Assembly: GCF_035594765.1 (NCBI RefSeq)
Contig: NC_085842.1
Coordinates: 157,617,036 to 157,681,035, forward strand
From: Anolis carolinensis
Taxonomy: Eukaryota
Reading direction: 5' to 3'
DNA length: 64,000 nt
The notes under the pieces are model-generated. The model searched no databases. It was not told the DNA's origin and was given only the letters and a program-made list of their open reading frames with translations. Positions 2,872 to 58,372 of this stretch are shown one piece after another. Position numbers and translations under genes: made by a program. Position 1 is the first letter of the stretch; every line of letters starts with the position of its first letter.

Positions 2872-4029
2872 GATGTCTTAAACCCTAACAGGTTAACAGC
2901 AACAGCATGCAGTGTTTAATAGTGAACTCTGCTGTACTCCACAAATAGAAAAATCAGCCTGTTTAGCAAACCTTGTAAATGTTGGTTTATTTTCAGTAAA
3001 TGTTTGATTTTTATACCAATTTGATATAGCTATATACTTGGGGTCATATAAACATTTCATGGGTGGAAAGTGGAAAGGAGTTGTAAATGGAAAAAGTTGT
3101 AAAAGCTCTGGTCTAGAGAAGAACAACACTTCAAGTGCATCTCATTCATGACACTGCTGCTTCTTATGCTTAGTTTCTTCATGTAGCCTTGCAGTACAGA
3201 AGAGGCCATGGAATCAATGCCTCTTTAGAGGCACATAAGAGTCACTCTTCAACCTCTGTTCACACTTCAAAGGTACCTTCCAAAAAAGTAAAATTATTCA
3301 TCTCATAGGTCTCCTTAAACCTCTGCTTCCTATTAAGAACTATTTTTAACTTACTAGATCCTTAACTATTCTGTCTTACCAAAAGGGCAGTTTCCAAACT
3401 TTGCTGGCAAATTTCCTGTGCTGTGAAGCCACACCACTCACACCCCATACCAAGCAGAAGTTTCTGAGCTTTAAGCTCATTGGGGCAGGGACCTGGTTTT
3501 TATTTTCTTATTGCTGCAGTAAGCATCATGCACATCAAGGGCAATATACAAATATCAAGTCAACAATAATGCATTCTCATACTTCTCCCTTCCTAAAAGG
3601 CTCTTAGGCTATAAAGACTAGATGCAACTTTCAACCATCCCCTCACCCATTCTATCTTTCAAAACATAGCATGAACAACGGCGCCACGGGAAAAAGGCTG
3701 GGATTTCTGGGAGTTGGAGTCCAAAATACCTGGAGGCCCAAAGGTTGGGAACCATTGCCTTAGACATACCTTATGTTCAGGGCGGTTTCCTCATACAGTG
3801 TGGAGGCCAGAACTGATTGGAAGTGCTTGTCAAGCCTTGGAAGAGGCGCGTCTACACTGTGGAATTGATGCAGTTTGACCCCACTTTAACTGCCATGACT
3901 CAATGCTGTGGAGTCGTGGGAGCTACCATTCGGCAAGGCCTCGAGCCTTCGCGGCCCAAGGAGGCACACTCCACACCTCAGGATGCCACTACACGGAGCC
4001 ATGGCTGTTCAGGTGGCATCAAAGCGCAC

Positions 4030-4570
4030 TGATTGCACAGCGGGCCTCCCTGGCAACAAGGGCGTCAAAGGCGCGACCGCCGGCGGCCCTCAGTCAGGCG
4101 CCGTGTTTCCAAACAGATCCCCCCCCCCCCCCCCCCCGCGGCCTTTCCCGGACGCCCGAGGAGGCACAGCCCCGCACTCCCCGCCAAGCCTCGGCCTACC
4201 TCCCGCGAGGCCCCGCTGCGGGTGGGGGCATCCGCCGCTCCGCCGCTCGCTCCCCCACCCCTTTCTTTCTCCCTCACAGCCACCACCGGAAACACGCCAG
4301 CTCCAATCCGGATGCCCGTCTCTCCCTCGCTCTCTCTGTGCACTCACAGAGGCGGGGATGGGGAAGACTGAAGGAGGGCGCGCGAGGCGGACCACTCTAG
4401 CCACCTGGAAAGAAACGCGGCTCGCTCTCCCAGGGCTTCGACCCCGCCCGCTCTGTCCGATGCACAAGGCGGAAAGGCACGCGACGACCGAGTGGGCGGG
4501 CTTTGAGCGTGGGTGGGCGTGCCCGGTGGGCGGGGCTTGTTTGCAGAGCCCCAGGCGGTAAGCTCCTGCC
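4030..4570. promoter_or_regulatory. CpG island, probable bidirectional promoter
   Basis: GC/CpG-rich with GC boxes (gggcggg at ~4494 and ~4528). Minus-strand donor AG|gtaggc at 4200/4199; plus-strand donor CG|gtaagc at 4557/4558. Confidence 0.8.
4200..4400 (-). other. Probable non-coding first exon of a minus-strand gene (RNF41 by synteny only; 5' boundary approximate)
   Basis: Splice donor at 4199 inside the CpG island. No coding exon recognised in 1-4000. RNF41 is head-to-head with NABP2 in human. Confidence 0.5.
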
Positions 4571-4892
4571 TTCCTCAGTGCCCTGGCTGAGTGCTCTGGA
4601 AATAGGGGAGTTGCACTTTTAAAAGGTCTGTACCCTTCCCTGCCAAAAAAGTTCCTGACCAAACTATAATTCCCAGGATTCCACAGCATGGAGCCATGGC
4701 AGTTAAAGTTGTCAAACTGCATTCATTTTACAGTGCAGATTTAACCTCAGTCTGCTATTTAACCTCAGCGGACTGAAACCCAAAACTTTTGGAAAATGGA
4801 AATCTCCATAACCTTTTGGAGAAATTATGATCTTTGGAAAGGCATGACCTTGTTAGAAATCATAACCTTTTGGAAACAAAATGATGTATAAA

Positions 4893-5221
4893 AAAGGTAA
4901 AGGTTTTCCCCTGACATGAAGTCTGGTTGTGTCCGACTCTGGGGGTTGGTGCTCACCTCCATTTCTAAGCTGAAGAACCAGCGCTGTCCATAGACACCTC
5001 CAAGGTCATGTGGTCAGCATGACTGCATGGAACGCCGTTACCTTCCCGCCGGAGCGGTACCTATTGATCTACTCACATTTGCATATTTTCGAACTACTAG
5101 GTTGGCAGAAGCTAGGGCTAACAGCGAGAGCTCACCCTGCTCCCTGGACTTGAACCACCAACCATTTGGTCAGTAAGGTTAACAGCTGAGTAGTTTAACT
5201 CATTGCGCCACCAGGGGCTCC
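4893..5221 (-). mobile_element. Sauria SINE, copy 1
   Basis: tRNA-derived head at the right end, (ACCTTT)-type tail at the left; TSD AAATGATGTATAAA at 4879-4892 and 5222-5235. Confidence 0.88.
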
Positions 5222-5235
5222 AAATGATGTATAAA

Positions 5236-5539
5236 GTTAAAGGTTTCCCCTGACGTTAAGTCCAGTCATGTCTGACTCTGGGGGTTGGTGCTCATCTCCA
5301 TTTCTAAGCCAAAGAGCCAGTGTTGTCCGTAGACACCTCCAAGGTCATGTGGCTGGCATGACTGCATGGAGCACCGTTACCTTCCCACCGGAGCGGTACC
5401 TATTGATCTACTCACATTGGCATGTTTTCGAACTGCTTAGGTTGGCAGGAGCTGGAGCTAACAGCGGCCGCTCCCGGGGTTTGAACCTGGGACCTTTCGG
5501 TCTCCAGCTCAGTGCTTTAACGCACTTCGCCACCGGGGC
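5236..5539 (-). mobile_element. Sauria SINE, copy 2
   Basis: Highly similar to copy 1, same orientation. Confidence 0.88.
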
Positions 5540-6539
5540 GAATATATATGATATATATTCAAATTCAAAATCAAAATGGTGTATATTCAGCATTTAATTT
5601 TGCCATGCTTATGTTGGAAACCACTTTAAGTCCCCCCACCCATGGTATATAAATAAATAAATAAATACCATAATCTTTTGGAAAATGGCATTCGTGCAAG
5701 GCAATTAGGTTTCTCAGCTGTTAAACTGATGTACCCAGATATCTCTTTGAACTGTTAGGGACAAAGATATGCCAAAGCACAAAACACACACACACACACA
5801 TATATAGCAGAGTTTCTGAAATGTTCTTTCAGTTGCCCAAAACACATCTACTCTCCCTTAAAACGTCTTGGTTTAAATCATGGTCTCAAGAGATAAAAAT
5901 AAGTAGACTTCTCTAAAAGTAACATATTTGGTTTACTCACAAACTTCATATATTCAGCATACATTGCTCATCAGTCCAGTTGCAGGTGAGATTTTAAAGT
6001 AGTTTCTCTGTGTAGATAACACAGGGCATCTTTCTTAGAATCAACACTCCATAGCCTAAAGCATCTCTCTGTTCTGAGAGTCTAATAGAGTCTCTTTTCT
6101 ACAGTGAACATTTAATGGCTTCTGTACAGCATTCTGTTTTGCTGACTTCTAAAAACATACATTTGTTTCTACTGATTTCTAAAGCATACTGTTTTTAAAA
6201 TGGAGTCTGAGTCCTGAATAGTCCCAGATTTGATCACATGGGGCCCTTCCACACAACCCTATATTCCAGAATATCAAGGCAGAAAATCCCACATTATCTG
6301 CTTTGAACTGGAATATATAGCAGTGTGGACTCGGATAACCCAGTTCAAAGCAGATATTGTGGGATTTTCTGCCTTCATATTCTGGAATATAGGGCTGAAC
6401 GAAAAAGCCCATAGTCTGCAGCCCCTCCCATATCACAGAGTTAAGGAAAACTGCATATCAATACACATATATACAATACAGTGAACAATTTGAATTATAT
6501 ACATAGCAAATAATTAATTGAGGCTTAAATAATGTTGCT

Positions 6540-7720
6540 ATTTCCAACAAAAATCGAGTCACAACAATTTTTGTTAATACAACTCCAATATGCTGATGAT
6601 AATGTAGTCTGTGCTTGTTCAGAGGAAGGCCTACAAGCCACTCTAAACGCCTTTGCAAAAGCATACGAAAAGCTTGGCTTTCTCCATATTGAGAAAGCCA
6701 AAGTGCTCTTCCAGCAATCGTCAGCCAATCCCTCTGCAGTGCCGGAAATACAGCTTAATAGTGTAATGTTAGAAAACATAGACCATTTCCGCTACCTTGG
6801 CAGCCACCTCTCCACAAAAGTCAACATTGACACTGAAATACAACACTGCCTGAGCTCTGCTAGCGCAGCATTCTTCCAAATTAAGCAGAGTGTTTGAGGA
6901 GCTAGACATTAATAGGTGGAGACCAAGGGCCCTTCCACAGAGCCAGCCATATAACCCAGAATATATGGCAGAATAATCCATAATACCTGCTTTAAACAAG
7001 GTTATCTGAGTCCACACTGCCATATATCCCAGTTCAAAGCAGATAATGTGGGATTTTATTCAGCTGTGTGGAAGGGGCCTATGATGCTTATTTATAAAGC
7101 TATTGTTCTCCCAACCCTGTTATATATGCCTGCGAAATGTGGACCATTTACAGACGTCACACTCAACTCCTGGAACGATTCTATCAGAATTGCTTCCGAA
7201 AAATCCTGCAAATATCTTGGGAAGACAGGCGGACAAATGTCAGCGTGCTGGAAGAAGCAAAGACTAAAAGCATTGAAGTGATGCTCCTACGTCCATTGGA
7301 CTGATCACATTGTCCAAATGCCCGATCCCCAGCTCCCACAGCAGTTGCTATACTCCCAATTCAAGAATGGAAAATGGGATGTTGGTGGACAAGAAAAGAA
7401 ATTTAAAGATGGGCTTAAAGCTAACCCTAAAAATTCTGGTATAGACATTGAGAACTAGGAAGCCCTGGCCCTTGAGCACTCTAGCTGGAGATCAGCTGTG
7501 ACCAGCAGTGCTGTGGAATTTGAAGAGGCACAAATGGAGGGTGAAAGAGAGAAAAAGGAAGGCGCATCAAGCCAACCCTGACGAAGATCGCCTTCCACCT
7601 GGAAATGAATGTCCTCACTGCAGAAGAACATGCGGGTCAAGAATAGGGCTCCACAGTCATCTACGTACCAACCGCCAGGACACTACACTTGAAAGGCCGT
7701 AATACTCGGGCACAAGTGAT
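6540..7720 (+). mobile_element. Degenerate 5'-truncated RTE-clade LINE, interrupted by a MITE at ~6927-7079
   Basis: LQYADD and FRYLGS RT motifs; terminal C2H2 CPHCRRTCGSRIGLHSHLRT; frameshifts and stops. Confidence 0.8.
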
Positions 7721-8493: not shown

Positions 8494-9044
8494 TGAGACT
8501 GAGGGACCATAATTAACACAGGGCTCTTCTACACTGCCATATAAAATCCAGATTATCTGCTTCGATAAAATGGATTATGTGGCAGTGTAAAATGGGTCCA
8601 GAAACAGTAAAAGAAGGTAGATTAGAATCTACTTGTTTATCACTGGACAGATTAGATTCCCTGTAAACTTGCAGGTTGCAGAAAAAAATAATGCTGGAAG
8701 ATGGGAAATGGGGGAGGGGGTTATGTGAACATTTTATGAACTGAGGCAGGATCTACATTGCCAAATAATGCACTGCACTGCACTTCACTATATGAGTCTC
8801 TACACTGACCATATAATGCAGTTCAAACTGCAGCATAGCTCCAGCCTTAATTCTGGTGCTGACCACAAATTCCTGGGCAGAGAACATGCCCAGAGGCACC
8901 CTGTTCCTTAGCATCTCTCTGCCCATCTGAGTCATTATCTGACTGGTTGGTGGCTCTAGAGCAGGGGTCCCCAAACTTTTTAAACGGGGCCGGTTAACAA
9001 TCCTTCGGACCGTTGGAGGGCCGGACTATAGTTGGCCACCGAGC

Positions 9045-9095
<51 letters not shown>

Positions 9096-9353
9096 CAACA
9101 ACAACAACAATTTAAAAAACCCTTTGGGCCATTGAGTCCAATCCCCTTCTGCCTTTGTGCACCGAAAGCACAAGCAAAGCACCCTTGACAGATGGCCACA
9201 CAGCCGCAATGTTTATTATTATTATTATTAATAATAATAATAATAAAAAGGGTTGAACGAGACCCCTTGGGCCATTAAGTCCAACCCCCTTTTGCCTTTG
9301 TGCACCAAAAGCACAAGCGAAGCACCCCTGACAGATGGCCACCCAGACTCAAT

Positions 9354-9402
<49 letters not shown>

Positions 9403-9519
9403 GTTGGAAGAGACCCTTTGGGCCATTGAGTCCAATCCCCTTCTGCCTTTGTGCACCAAAAGCACTAGCAAAGCACCCCTGACAGGTGGCCACCCAGCCT
9501 CAATGTTAATAATAATAAT
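9045..9519. repeat. Tandem array of three ~100-bp units separated by (AAT)n tracts; partial fourth unit at 11224-11286
   Basis: Repeated CCCTTGGGCCATTGAGTCCAA..AAAGCACCCCTGACAGATGGCCAC..CAATGTT. Confidence 0.9.
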
Positions 9520-11096
9520 CAAACATCTAAGAATTCTCACAAAATTTCACATTTGATGTACATGGATGACCTGAAGCTATATGGGAAAACAGAAACTGAA
9601 ATTCAGTCTCTGACCAACACTGTCCGAATTTTTAGCACTGATATCAACATGGAGTTTGGTTTGGACAAATGTTCGACAGTGGCATTGAAGAAGGGAAAAA
9701 TCATTAAAAGTGAGGGCATAAATATGCCCAATGGCCAAACAATAAAGTGTCACCAGCCAGAGGCCTATAAATATCTGGGCATATTACAGCTGGACAACAT
9801 CAAGCATGAACATGTGAAAACTGTGGTCAGCAAAGAATACACACAAAGGGTCAGAAAAATTCTCAAAAGCAAGCTCAATGGAGGCAACACCATCAAGGCC
9901 ATAAACACCTGGGCCATACCTGTCATAAGATATACTGCTGGCATCATAAACTGGACACAGATGGAACTGGACAATTTGGACAGAAAAACAAGAAAACTCA
10001 TGACCATTCATCATTCACTGCACCCTCGCAGTGATGTTGACCGGCTATATCTGCCTAGAAGATCAGGGGGCAGAGGACTCCTACAAGTAAAACAAGCAGT
10101 CAAAGAAGAAGAACATGCCCTGGCAGAATATGTAAAGCAAAGTGAAGAACCTGCTTTGATTGAAGTCAAAAATCAGAAATTCCTCAAAGCACAGCAGACA
10201 AAAAACCAGTACAAGAAAACCACACTACAAACTAGAGCTGACAACTGGCACAACAAAACATTGCATGGAAAGTTCCTTGACAAAATTGAAGGAAAAGCTG
10301 ATAAGGAGAAGACCTGGCTCTGGCTCACAAATGGGACCCTGAAGAAGGAGACAGAAGGCCTGATCCTTGCAGCCCAGGAGCAAGCCATCAGGACAAATGC
10401 AATTAAGGCCAAGATCGAAAAATCAGCTGATGACCCAAAATGCAGACTGTGCAAGGAAACAGATGAAACCATTGATCATATCCTCAGCTGCTGTAAGAAA
10501 ATTGCACAGACAGACTACAAACAGAGGCACAACTATGTGGCCCAAATGATTCATTGGAACTTATGCCTCAAGTACCACCTGCCAGCAGCAAAGAACTGGT
10601 GGGATCACAAACCTGCAAAAGTATTGGAAAATGAGCACGCAAATATACTGTGGGACTTCCGAATCCAGACTGACAAAGTTCTGGAACACAATACACCAGA
10701 CATCACAGTTGTGGAAAAGAACAAGGTTTGGATCATTGATGTTGCCATCCCAGGTGACAGTCACATTGACGAAAAACAACAGGAAAAACTCAGCCGCTAT
10801 CAGGACCTCAAGATTGAACTGCAAAGACTCTGGCAGAAACCAGTGCAGGTGGTCCCGGTGGTGATGGGCACACTGGGTGCAGTGCCGAAAGATCTCAGCC
10901 GGCATTTGGAAACAATAGACATTGACAAAATCACGATCTGCCAACTGCAAAAAGCCACTCTGCTGGGATCTGCACGCATCATCCGAAAATACATCACACA
11001 GTCCTAGACACTTGGGAAGTGTTCGACTTGTGATTTTGTGAAACGAAACCCAGCATATCTATCTTGTTTGCTGTGTCATACAACGTCGTTGTGTCA
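9520..11096 (+). mobile_element. 5'-truncated R4/Dong(Rex6)-clade non-LTR retrotransposon with an open RT C-terminal half + REL endonuclease ORF (9553-11007)
   Basis: YMDD and KYLGI RT motifs, CCHC knuckle CRLCKETDETIDHILSCC, RHN motif, and PDITVVEK..DVAIP / KLSRYQDL restriction-like endonuclease motifs; flanked on both sides by (TAA)n. Confidence 0.9.
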
Positions 11097-11115
11097 ATAA
11101 TAATAATAATAATAA

Positions 11116-11169
11116 TGTGATTTTGTGATACGAAATCCAGCATATCTATCTTGTTTGCTGTGTCATACA

Positions 11170-11170
<1 letters not shown>
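11116..11170 (+). mobile_element. Ultra-short second R4/Dong 3' end (~55 bp)
   Basis: Near-identical repeat of 11029-11083, set between two (TAA)n tracts. Confidence 0.8.
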
Positions 11171-11223
<53 letters not shown>

Positions 11224-11911
11224 GGGTTGTAAGAGAAGAAGATACCCCTTGGGTCATTTAGTCCTACCCCCTTCTGCCCTTGTGCTGTGGGGGCCGGATA
11301 AATGGCTTTGATGGGCCGCATCCGGCCCACGGGCCTTAGTTTGGGGACCCCTGCTCTTGAGGTTCTGGTAAAAAAAAAGAAAAGAAACCCACAAAGTAAA
11401 ATCTGCAGATCTGCATTCTGGCAACTCTGTGCCACAAGCGGGAATGAATCAAGGATCTTTCTAACACTATAGTATTCAAAATGGAAGAATACCATTAATT
11501 GAAATGATTGATTCTATGATATTCAGAGCACGAGAGTGATAAGTTAAAAGCAGCGAAGAATTTCTTTGTGGAGCAACGGATGCAATGAGAATAAAGCCCC
11601 CTTCTAAACTGCCCTATATCCCAGGATCTGATCCCAGATTATCTACTTTGAACTGGGTAATATGAGCCTCCATTGCCAGATAACCTGGGATGAACAAATA
11701 ATCTGGGATCATATCCTGGGATATAGGGGCAGTATGGAAGGGGCCTAAGGTAACAATATTTAATTTACTTTATTTGTATAATGAGTAATGGTTTGAATTT
11801 ACTGACAAAATATAACTTCTTAACAGTCCCCTCCTCCAAAGTTCTACCTCATTCACTTACATGTGTGATGTGTCCTCAAGTTACCTATCTATTTATAACA
11901 ACCCCATGAAT

Positions 11912-12165
11912 AGGTTGCTGTGAGTTTTCCGGGCTCTATAGCCATGTTCTAGAAGCATTCTCTCCTGACGTTTCACCCTTATCTATGGCAGAGGTATCCT
12001 CAGAGGTGTATATATCTGTGGAATGTCCAGGGTGGGAGAAAGAAAGAACTCTTGTTTGTTAGAGGCAAGCGTGAATGTTGCAATTGGCCAGCTTGATTAC
12101 CATTGAATAGCCTTGCCGCTTCAAAGCCTGTCCGCTCCCTACCTGGGGGGATCCTTTGTTGGGGG
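11912..12165 (-). mobile_element. Penelope-like pLTR fragment, solo
   Basis: Same family as the GIY-YIG-bearing copy at 28.9-30.5 kb; contains the hammerhead motif. Confidence 0.8.
11962..12006 (-). ncRNA. Minimal hammerhead ribozyme motif, core intact but stem II altered
   Basis: Reverse complement reads cct-CTGAGGA-tacctctgccatagataagggt-GAAAC-GTC-agg. Confidence 0.55.
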
Positions 12166-12199
12166 GATGCCTCAGAAAACTAGAAATTCTCCTTCCTCA

Positions 12200-12560: not shown

Positions 12561-13080
12561 CCATGTTCTTTAAGGGTAAATCTCTGCCTGTCAGCACGTT
12601 TTAATAAGTTGTTTCATTGCAGTTTTTAACCCATTCATTCTTCTGTTGTCATTTTTATCGGGGTGTAGGAATTAACCGATCCGGAGTGCATCTCCATTGT
12701 AGAATGATTCGATTTGACCCCACCTGGGCTGCCATGGCACAGTGCTGTGAAATCCTGAGATTTGTAGTTTGGCGAGGCACCACCAGCATCCTTTAGTAAA
12801 GAAGGTAAAGAGCCATGCAGATCTACAGCTCCCATGATTCCATCGCATTGAGCCATGGCAGTTACCAAGCGGGGTCAAACCGCAGTAATTGCACAGTGGA
12901 GATGCAGCTTCAGCCACTTGGTGCTTTGCACAGAAAGGAAAGCTGGAGTCAAAAGAACTCACCAGATGGTCCATTTTGTTTTGCTTTTGATCAGAACTTG
13001 AAATTGACTAAAAACAAGGGAAGGTGTCTTTTTCTGAATTGTCCCCTGGATAATGATGCCGTGTTTATTATTATTTTATT

Positions 13081-13292
13081 ATGACACAACAAACAAGATA
13101 GATATGCTGGATTTCGTATCACAAAATCACAAGTCGAACACTTCCCAAGTGTCTAGGACTGTGTGATGTATTTTCGGATGATGCGCGCAGATCCCAGTAG
13201 GGTGGCCTTTTGCAGTTGGCAGATTGTGATTTTGTCAATGTCTATTGTTTCCAAATGCTGGCTGAGATCTTTTGGCACGGCACCCAATGTGC
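13081..13292 (-). mobile_element. R4/Dong 3' fragment in a (TTA)n tract
   Basis: Encodes the same C-terminus (TLGAVPKDLS..ARIIRKYITQS) and 3'UTR; flanked by TTA/TAA microsatellites. Confidence 0.9.
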
Positions 13293-13321
13293 AGATCATA
13301 TTATTATTATTATTATTATTC

Positions 13322-13354
<33 letters not shown>

Positions 13355-13460
13355 TTATTATTATTAATGTTATTATTATTATTATTATATTTATATCCCA
13401 CTTTTCTCTCTTAAAATAGAATCAAATCAGCAAAAATACTAAAAACAATACGCTATACAA

Positions 13461-14109
13461 TGTGTTGTCGAAGGCTTTCATGGCCGGAATCACTGGGTTG
13501 CTGTGAGTTTTCCGGCCTGTGTAGCCATGTTCCAGAATCATTCTCTCCTGAAATTTCGCCCACAACTATGGCAAGCATCCTTAGAGGTGATACGGTCAGT
13601 TGGAAACTAGTAAGTGGGGTTTATGTATCTGTGGAATGTCCTGGGTGGGAGAAAAAACGCTCGTCTGTTTTTGGTGAGCGTGAATGTTGCAATTGGCCAC
13701 CTTGCTTAGCTGCCAGTATTAAAAATTGGCTTCCAGTGTTGAAAAATTATAAAATAAGAACAGTACATAAAGAACAACACTAAAAAAGGGAATTCCAGAC
13801 AGGAAACAATCAGGGACAGCTAACACCTCCCAATAAAGGATTCCCCAAGGCAGGAAGCAGTGAGGTTTTGAAGCTGCAAGGCTATGCAATTCTAATCAAG
13901 GTGGCCAATTGCAACATTCACACGAGCCTCAAACAGACAAGTTCTTTCTCCTACCCTAAACATTATTCCACAGATATATAAATCCACTTGCCTGGTTTTC
14001 CAACAGACCTCACAACCTCTGAGGATGCCTGCCATAGATGTGGGTGAAACGTCAGAAGAGAATGTTTTTGGAACATGGCCATACAGCCCGGAAAATTAAC
14101 AACAACCCA
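13461..14109. mobile_element. Penelope-like inverted pair
   Basis: Minus arm ~13461-13710, plus arm ~13711-14109; ATACAAT repeated at both flanks. Confidence 0.85.
14016..14058 (+). ncRNA. Minimal type I hammerhead ribozyme motif, core intact
   Basis: cct-CTGAGGA-t-gcctgc-catagat-gtgggt-GAAAC-GTC-aga. Confidence 0.7.
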
Positions 14110-14559
14110 ATACAATATACAACTTAAAAGTCTAAAACACTAAAATAGAATTAAACTAGGAACCTTTCTCCTGAGATTTCAGTTAAAATAGCATCTTGTG
14201 TCCTACATTCAAAACAGGTAAAAATAGTCGCTGTGCGGACAGAACTGGAGTTGCAACTTTCACAAAATACCAGGATGGGTGTATAATTTGTATCATAATT
14301 ATGTGAGTATCCATAACCATGGGAATAACAAGCGCAATAATGTTTTCTCTGTGTCTGGTTGGGAGCATAGGGTGGTGAATCTGGTTTTGCCTGTCCCCAT
14401 CCCTGTAGAATCTGATTTGGGATCATTCAACTGAAGAGGTTGCAACTTCTCCTGCTTTTTAAAATGACTTATGTCAAAGACTGTAAATACAGAACAAGGG
14501 AATGTGCAACATGGTTTGATCTTGAGTTGTAACCAGTAAGGACACTGATGAGATTATCA

Positions 14560-14855
14560 CAATCAGGGCCAGCTAACACCTCCCAACAAAGGATCCCCCC
14601 CGGGCAGGAAGCAGCCAGGCTTTGAAGCTGCAAGGCTATTCAGTGCTCATCAAGGTGGCCAACTGCAACATTCACACTTGCCTCAAGCAGGCAAGAGTTC
14701 TTTTTCCCACCCTGCACATAATTCCAGAGATATATAAATAAACCCCACTTGCCTAGTTTCCAACAGACCTCACAACCTTCGAGGATGCCTGCCATAGATG
14801 TGGCCGAATGCTTCTGGAATATGGCCAGACAGCCTGGAAAACTCACAGCAACCCA
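14560..14855 (+). mobile_element. Penelope-like pLTR fragment, solo
   Basis: Family similarity; internal deletion in the ribozyme motif. Confidence 0.8.
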
Positions 14856-16739: not shown

Positions 16740-23672
<6,933 letters not shown>

Positions 23673-58029: not shown

Positions 58030-58329
58030 AGTCCCATTGTTGTTGTCTTGCCATTTTATACCGCACTTTATTGTACAATTGTGAAATTTCCTTTTCCCAT
58101 TTCGTAACACTCTGCATTTCGCCTGGGATCTACGAATTAGTCTCCTGTTTTTAACATTGTATCCTGCTTGTTGATTTTAATGATTGTTTTTATTGATGTT
58201 GGTGTTTTTTACTGGGATAATTGTTTTATTGCTTTGTTACTGTTATTTGTTTGTTTTATCGGGCCAGGCCCCATGTAAGCCGCCCCGAGTCACTTCGGGG
58301 AGATGGGGCGGGGTATAAAAATAAAGTTG

Positions 58330-58370
<41 letters not shown>
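58030..58370 (+). mobile_element. L2 LINE 3' end with (ATT)n tail (similar L2 end at ~44700-44900)
   Basis: GTAAGCCGCCCCGAGTC..GGGGAGATGGGGCGGGGTATAAAAATAAA followed by a microsatellite. Confidence 0.65.

Positions 58371-58372
<2 letters not shown>

Follow-up and report, generated by a model that had tools for sequence, protein, structure and literature searches.

Our analysis indicates that the segment at 8962-11353 of the window (the whole 64-kb stretch of Anolis carolinensis DNA analysed here) is very probably one nested insertion, in which a 5'-truncated R4/Dong-type element entered a ~740-bp non-autonomous Anolis hAT element whose interior is a tandem array of CR1 ends and (TAA)n tracts; Dong would have integrated at a TAA tract, in a single event of target-primed reverse transcription. 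The composite measures 2,392 bp, and removal of 9520-11170 leaves 741 bp. Between the TIRs, the only ORFs of at least 120 aa are the reverse transcriptase (RT) ORF of the passenger and one antisense frame inside it; there is no transposase ORF.

The outer boundaries of the composite are those of a non-autonomous hAT element with hAT-HT2-type ends. The TIR CAGGGGTCCCCAAACT is present at 8962-8977 (plus strand) and at 11338-11353 (minus strand) as a perfect 16-bp match, and these are the only two such ends in the 64-kb window when up to 3 mismatches are allowed. The 8-bp TSD is imperfect, with CTCTAGAG on the left (8954-8961, plus strand) and CTCTTGAG on the right (11354-11361, plus strand) agreeing at 7 of 8 positions. 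A preliminary description of this DNA had claimed intact hAT TIRs with an 8-bp TSD; the TIRs are indeed perfect (16/16), but one position of the TSD is mismatched. The left TSD fits NTCTAGAN of the hAT-HT families, and TIR and TSD both agree with the pattern in Table 1 of PMC3014272, which upholds the assignment of the carrier to hAT. Inside the TIRs lie GGCC-rich subterminal arms at 8978-9044 and 11286-11337 (both plus strand). GGCC occurs 3 times in 83 bp on the left, compared with 3.2 times per kb window-wide, and the left arm is likely to be a putative transposase-binding region.

TIRs of the CAGGGGTCCCCAAACT type are listed in Table 1 of PMC3014272 for hAT-HT2N1, N2 and N3, hAT-HT3N2 and hAT-N4_AC. 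The TIR found here is identical at 16 of 16 positions to the one printed for hAT-HT2N1 and HT3N2, and falls within CAGGGGTCCYCAAACT of HT2N2, HT2N3 and hAT-N4. Two of these families are close in size to the passenger-free element: hAT-N4_AC, of 732 bp, with >1,000 copies and no homology to hAT-HT2 beyond the TIRs, and hAT-HT2N3_AC, of 780 bp, with 1,372 copies (PMC3014272). Both share with the present element (~741 bp) the 16-bp TIR and an 8-bp TSD of NTCTAGAN/NYYTARRN type. The copy described here differs in holding a 1.65-kb insertion, and for neither family does the available text of PMC3014272 state a tandem CR1 or microsatellite interior. We therefore regard the element, from its TIR and size, as a member of the hAT-HT2-ended MITE group for which both families are candidates. 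Anole hAT MITEs often carry pieces of other elements, CR1 included (PMC3014272). The non-autonomous hobo_AC families are a close parallel, being anole hAT MITEs in which fragments of CR1, Penelope, SINE and Chapaev elements are nested as fixed family features; however, they have another TIR and their fragments are not reported to be tandem (PMC3014272), whereas the present element contains 3.5 tandem copies of a CR1 end, spaced by TAA tracts. We found no description of a tandem CR1/(TAA)n interior in the literature searched, which was available in part; Repbase entries or earlier anole LINE work may hold one. The word 'microsatellite' is absent from the available text of PMC3014272, whose three mentions of CR1 concern hobo families or references, and the motifs and family names were not found in 12 of the 15 supplement files of PMC7561263.

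The interior consists of three near-full units of ~100-105 bp and a half unit, with an AAT tract ahead of each, as the preliminary description had seen. Following the left arm, an (AAT)15 tract and then a few AAC repeats (9045-9112, plus strand) lead into unit 1 (9113-9210), a minus-strand CR1 3'-end fragment with its terminal ~12 nt eroded. A (TTA)6/(TAA)5 tract (9211-9246, plus strand) separates it from unit 2 (9247-9355, minus strand), and a (TAA)15 tract (9356-9401, plus strand) separates unit 2 from unit 3 (9402-9506, minus strand). The fourth tract is split by the passenger into (TAA)4 upstream (9507-9519) and (TAA)17 downstream (11171-11223), both on the plus strand, and is followed by unit 4 (11224-11285, minus strand), which holds the terminal ~60 nt of the CR1 end and is fused to the right arm. 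The unit periods are 143 and 151, and pairwise identities are 82/96, 87/96 and 93/104. The same hairpin stem was drawn in all three units that were folded, but it stood out from shuffled sequences in unit 2 alone (the terminal hairpin, z = -3.24), the other two having z scores of -0.27 and -0.12. CR1 elements end in an octamer microsatellite. The CR1 octamer is absent from the whole element, in which (ATT)n occupies the tail position instead; (ATA)n tails have been reported for snake1 CR1 (PMC3157835).

The preliminary description had suggested that the unit resembles the antisense 3' end of CR1, and the alignment with a CR1 consensus agrees. In a comparison by eye, unit 3 (minus strand) is identical to Anolis CR1_AC_1 (PMC4316615, supplement data S2, in the part available) at 62 of 71 positions, in two blocks that lie in the same order (30/33 at 9501-9469 and 32/38 at 9440-9403), the second ending where the CR1 tail starts. 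The 28 nt between the blocks fall outside this comparison because the source authors removed boundary columns. At the level of these aligned blocks, the identification of the unit as a reversed CR1 3' end is confirmed. All three full units break at one shared point and diverge from each other by 10-15%, far more than the family divergence of 1.5-1.75% given in Table 1 of PMC3014272; hence one captured end was likely duplicated before the family spread. This accords with the earlier proposal that a DNA transposon captured and tandemised a LINE end, in that a single piece with a breakpoint common to the full units likely underwent tandemisation. The TAA-unit-TAA module is multicopy in all four contig runs, with 55-122 contigs per run running into TAA past 9519, and A-rich or AAT runs precede 9402 in 55-80 contigs per run (4/4 runs). 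From size, we infer that these multicopy units elsewhere sit inside the same TIRs. With the unit profile, no free CR1 end was detected on the window, which yielded only the four units and a weak match at 2437-2475, and a two-part unit pattern matched neither metagenome contigs nor viral contigs (0 matches in each set). The weak match (nhmmer E 5e-4) is a degraded match to the unit, with the G-rich ending seen in half unit 4, and possibly belongs to an older MITE relative.

It could be argued that the array is not a family feature but was built up in the present copy, as several CR1-like sequences inserted independently into a TAA run, since the units differ by 10-15% and no second TIR-bounded copy was directly seen. 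We consider this extremely improbable. Independent 5' truncations would not be expected to leave three units with an identical breakpoint. The module occurs in many copies in 4/4 runs, flanked by TAA on either side, and the length of the empty element fits catalogued families (PMC3014272).

The passenger, an insertion of 1.65 kb, separates unit 3 from unit 4 and is flanked by TAA runs. Its main part (9520-11083, plus strand) is a 5'-truncated R4/Dong-type non-LTR retrotransposon, in which an ORF that begins at 9520, right after (TAA)4, encodes the end of an RT (YMDD), a CCHC knuckle and a PD..D endonuclease motif, with a stop at 11007 and a short 3' UTR. The preliminary description had placed a Dong-type element inside one tract of the array, and this is where the RT/CCHC/endonuclease ORF lies, flanked by (TAA)4 and (TAA)17. 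The ORF is 98% identical to an Anolis carolinensis protein of 1,137 residues (cluster of 42) and covers its final 495 codons (residues 643-1137); what is missing is most of the RT, together with the N-terminus and the 5' UTR. As the truncation lies inside the RT, the passenger would have been dead on arrival and incapable of self-retrotransposition, and from its reading frame it is a truncated, non-autonomous copy. N-terminal C2H2 fingers are not known from R4 elements. The full protein (P0001) has a Pfam RVT_1 domain at 475-730, CCHC at 950, PD..D at 1035 and no C2H2 pattern, and its nearest solved structures are R2 proteins. Judged by motifs and target, the passenger has the features of an R4/Dong-type element, namely a single ORF, RT, C-terminal CCHC and a PD-(D/E)xK-like endonuclease, in a comparison that contained no named R4, Dong or Rex6 reference. 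R4 is, judging by endonuclease type, the sole non-APE clade of the five main anole LINE clades. Its place among these five is given in PMC5389967, which in the part available describes 2 families, ~3,000 copies, a length of 3.8 kb and 1,729 polymorphic insertions. Dong is known to target TAA and is placed in the R4 lineage (PMC3812793, PMC3774820). We rejected the 'APE-type' label for Dong (PMC3812793), against which stand the R4 lineage placing in PMC3774820 and the RLE-like motifs seen here. The passenger thus resembles Dong of Bombyx mori and the Anolis R4 clade (PMC5389967) in its single ORF with RT, CCHC and restriction-like endonuclease motif, in sense-strand TAA at both junctions and in 5' truncation; it differs in being a fragment.

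Both junctions of the passenger are with TAA repeats. The last 2 nt (AT) of the upstream (TAA)4 match Dong as well, agreeing with the sequence that precedes the break (microhomology), and contig data from run X2 show the same 2-nt overlap of the TAA run with upstream Dong sequence. The Dong 3' end is present twice, at 11029-11083 and at 11116-11170, with a short spacer that resembles the extreme Dong end plus (AAT)7 in between (11084-11115, plus strand). The second 3' end (55 bp, plus strand) has the family-majority base at both sites where the long copy differs, these bases making up ~56-73% of the family at 11042 and 95-99.5% at 11049. These two sites rule out a recent tandem copy of the first end and point to either another hit in this TAA tract or re-priming there; a duplication before the long copy mutated is possible. 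The window contains one independent Dong copy, a 219-bp 3' fragment at 13080-13298 (minus strand) that is 94% identical and lies between TAA runs outside any hAT element, and which serves as a control. TAA hence adjoins 3 of 3 Dong 3' ends in the window. In the contig data, the loose ends of other truncated copies join AAT runs, and a full-length relative on a metagenome contig (L001, 65% identical) has plain AAT runs at both ends. The TAA association of the R4/Dong-type passenger, which the preliminary description had taken from known Dong/Rex6-type elements, is thus evident in all three window 3' ends, in the loose ends of other copies and in L001. A tRNA-like stretch was noted by eye in L001 (1-380), directly after the 5' AAT run.

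Several other repeats occur in the window. At 13080-13400, the Dong 3' fragment stands beside a mixed TAA/TTA array that resembles the tail of another retroelement, presumably an L2/SINE-like one. A (TTA)13 tract at 58270-58371 ends a 3' sequence, which we take to be SINE/L2-like, with no clear Dong insertion. Many dispersed copies of one further repeat, 79-90% alike, lie in both orientations at 11911-12170, 13460-14110, 14577-14855 and 20678-21110 and are, we presume, probably Penelope-type terminal repeats. A 122-aa RT-like fragment at 6529-6897, without a Pfam hit at E 0.001, appears to us to resemble RTE/BovB.

If MITE and Dong fragment had been copied together as 2.4-kb cargo, the composite would be present at several loci. 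Such a composite is suggested by the perfect TIRs, by a length of 2,392 bp close to that of the very young autonomous hAT-HT2_AC (2,246 bp) and by the nested TE fragments that are family features in anole hobo elements (PMC3014272). The contig data argue against it. Contigs of four of 24 runs, X15, X2 and X9 with one species label and X10 with another, were placed on 9400-11150, with 11088-11150 skipped as repeats; contig depth in these comparisons is not copy number and is a rough guide only. None of the 32 contig pieces listed (there being 325,589 further pieces) spanned the 9519/9520 junction. Depth for the family rises ~9- to 29-fold from bin 9577-9635 to bin 10993-11051 in the four runs, the usual gradient toward the 3' end because many copies are 5' truncated. 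Position 9706, 186 bp into the passenger, is G in the family and A in the window. The summed non-G depth at this site was at most 192 of 881,800 in X15, 69 of 615,426 in X2, 0 of 126,186 in X9 and 557 of 260,396 in X10 (0.02%, 0.01%, 0% and 0.2%, respectively), with some differences in X15 and X2 uncounted. Single listed contigs had depths of 60-133 in X15, 12-112 in X2, 8-26 in X9 and 37-53 in X10. The residual therefore corresponds to roughly one to three contigs of ordinary depth in X15 and in X2; in X9 it is nil, and in X10 it amounts to a dozen or so at most. The zero depth of the window base in X9 contigs is no proof of true absence. A base at one-to-few-locus depth speaks against amplification after the 9706 change, whereas an earlier move is untouched by this argument. 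Two observations count against a single-locus reading: residuals are larger at the other three near-private bases (0.3-3% at 9603, up to 3.9% at 10081), which are therefore common to some other copies, and there is a mild excess of depth in the junction bin 9518-9576 over the next bin (1.6-fold in X15, 0.9-1.2 in the other runs). Further evidence against joint copying is that the TSD has already mutated and that no 2.4-kb family with the CAGGGGTCCCCAAACT TIR appears in the available part of a catalogue that reaches down to 16 copies (PMC3014272). MITE-derived sequence was found in 0 of 252 proteins, Anolis gene models included, a tblastn search of these proteins against the MITE parts giving no hit, although this is a weak test. 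Co-mobilisation of MITE and Dong is thus not supported, and cargo copied to several loci seems to us very unlikely; a rare or earlier joint move is possible, as is mobilisation of the whole composite as cargo.

The hAT family may also matter to Dong without any movement of the composite, if Dong preferred TAA tracts in a MITE context and the family thereby spread safe targets, in a landing-pad partnership like that of Tx1L in Tx1D. Two Dong 3' ends in one tract of this copy, the 4-5 tracts per MITE in candidate families of >1,000 copies (PMC3014272) and the precedent for targeting of one TE into another (PMC6719617) would all fit such a preference. In Xenopus laevis, Tx1L/Tx1D is likewise a site-specific non-LTR retrotransposon within a DNA transposon (cited in PMC6719617); Tx1, however, encodes an endonuclease of the APE type and is directed at the DNA transposon itself (PMC4640811), whereas the target here is a generic microsatellite that is also used outside the transposon. 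Indeed, of the two Dong sites in the window, one occupies a TAA tract that belongs to no hAT element, and hence no restriction to the DNA transposon of the Tx1L/Tx1D type is seen. Dong 3'-end depth is also roughly 3- to 10-fold above that of the unit bins in 4/4 runs, which would place most Dong ends outside these arrays, and the 65%-identical L001 is flanked by plain AAT runs. A rough null expectation can be derived from the 2 TAA loci outside the MITE in 64 kb, which for the 1.8-Gb genome of A. carolinensis gives ~55,000 loci (n = 2), while 1,000-1,400 MITE copies with 4-5 tracts would add 4,000-7,000 further TAA tracts. Chance alone would then put roughly one in ten R4 insertions, or a few hundred, into such MITEs, and one nested case therefore needs no special partnership; we think a preference for MITE tracts improbable. 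The preliminary description had proposed a three-tier mobile system of hAT carrier, CR1/TAA array and Dong. This is not supported, given a passenger that is truncated and non-autonomous, a 9706 base at one-to-few-locus depth, a catalogue without a 2.4-kb family with this TIR and a second window Dong copy outside any hAT element.

Under the preferred reading of a single nested insertion, the following history may be proposed. An ancestral MITE with hAT-HT2-type ends would have gained a single CR1 3' end of ~105 nt, in reverse orientation and tailed by (ATT)n, for which the similarity is observed and the history conjectural. The piece would then have been tandem-duplicated before the spread, with slippage or unequal exchange within the microsatellite as the probable mechanism; this step is suggested by the shared breakpoint and the 10-15% unit divergence. 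The hAT-HT2 transposase, acting in trans, may have produced a MITE family of >1,000 copies, in line with the literature and the size match. In the present copy, Dong would have nicked the fourth TAA tract and reverse transcription would have halted after ~1.55 kb, a mechanism that is suggested by the hallmarks described above; the extra 55-bp Dong 3' end would derive from another hit or from re-priming. The composite would afterwards have decayed in place. On this reading, the TAA tracts of the MITE are passive targets, the same as other TAA runs.

A further lead concerns the origin of the R4/Dong-type family. The passenger protein (9520-11004) is 83-85% identical, without gaps, to proteins of Centruroides sculpturatus and C. 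vittatus (P0136, P0150, P0190 and P0147), as against 77% in Phrynocephalus and 64-66% in Hemicordylus. A tree of 23 rows unites the sequences of anole, Phrynocephalus and scorpions in one clade (100/100) and leaves Hemicordylus outside. In the two scorpion species, the copies are spread over several scaffolds, 0.27-2.9 Mb in length. These protein comparisons suggest horizontal transfer between lizard and scorpion, in either direction, with contamination and ancient paralogy as alternatives. No paper title on such an R4 transfer was found among the titles of one literature listing. If true, this would add a site-specific non-LTR clade to the known reptile-arthropod horizontal transfers.

In summary, the most likely reading is an annotation-level result that shows the interior make-up of an abundant anole hAT family. 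It indicates that a DNA transposon can seed TAA microsatellites via a captured CR1 end. Squamate CR1 3' ends with (ATA)n-type tails are also known from microsatellite seeding by snake1 CR1, but there the LINE itself spreads the tail, whereas here a captured CR1 end is likely to have been spread by a DNA transposon (PMC3157835, PMC6050309). On a broader and, in our view, unlikely interpretation, a >1,000-copy hAT MITE family made of a tandemised CR1 tail would be a major, preferred source of targets for a TAA-specific R4/Dong element, and some MITE-Dong composites would have been mobilised together; the system would then be a counterpart of Tx1L/Tx1D mediated by a microsatellite, with both partners maybe acquired horizontally by anoles. 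If enrichment or co-movement were true, the anole elements would provide a clean case of one transposon that both supplies and carries the target of another.
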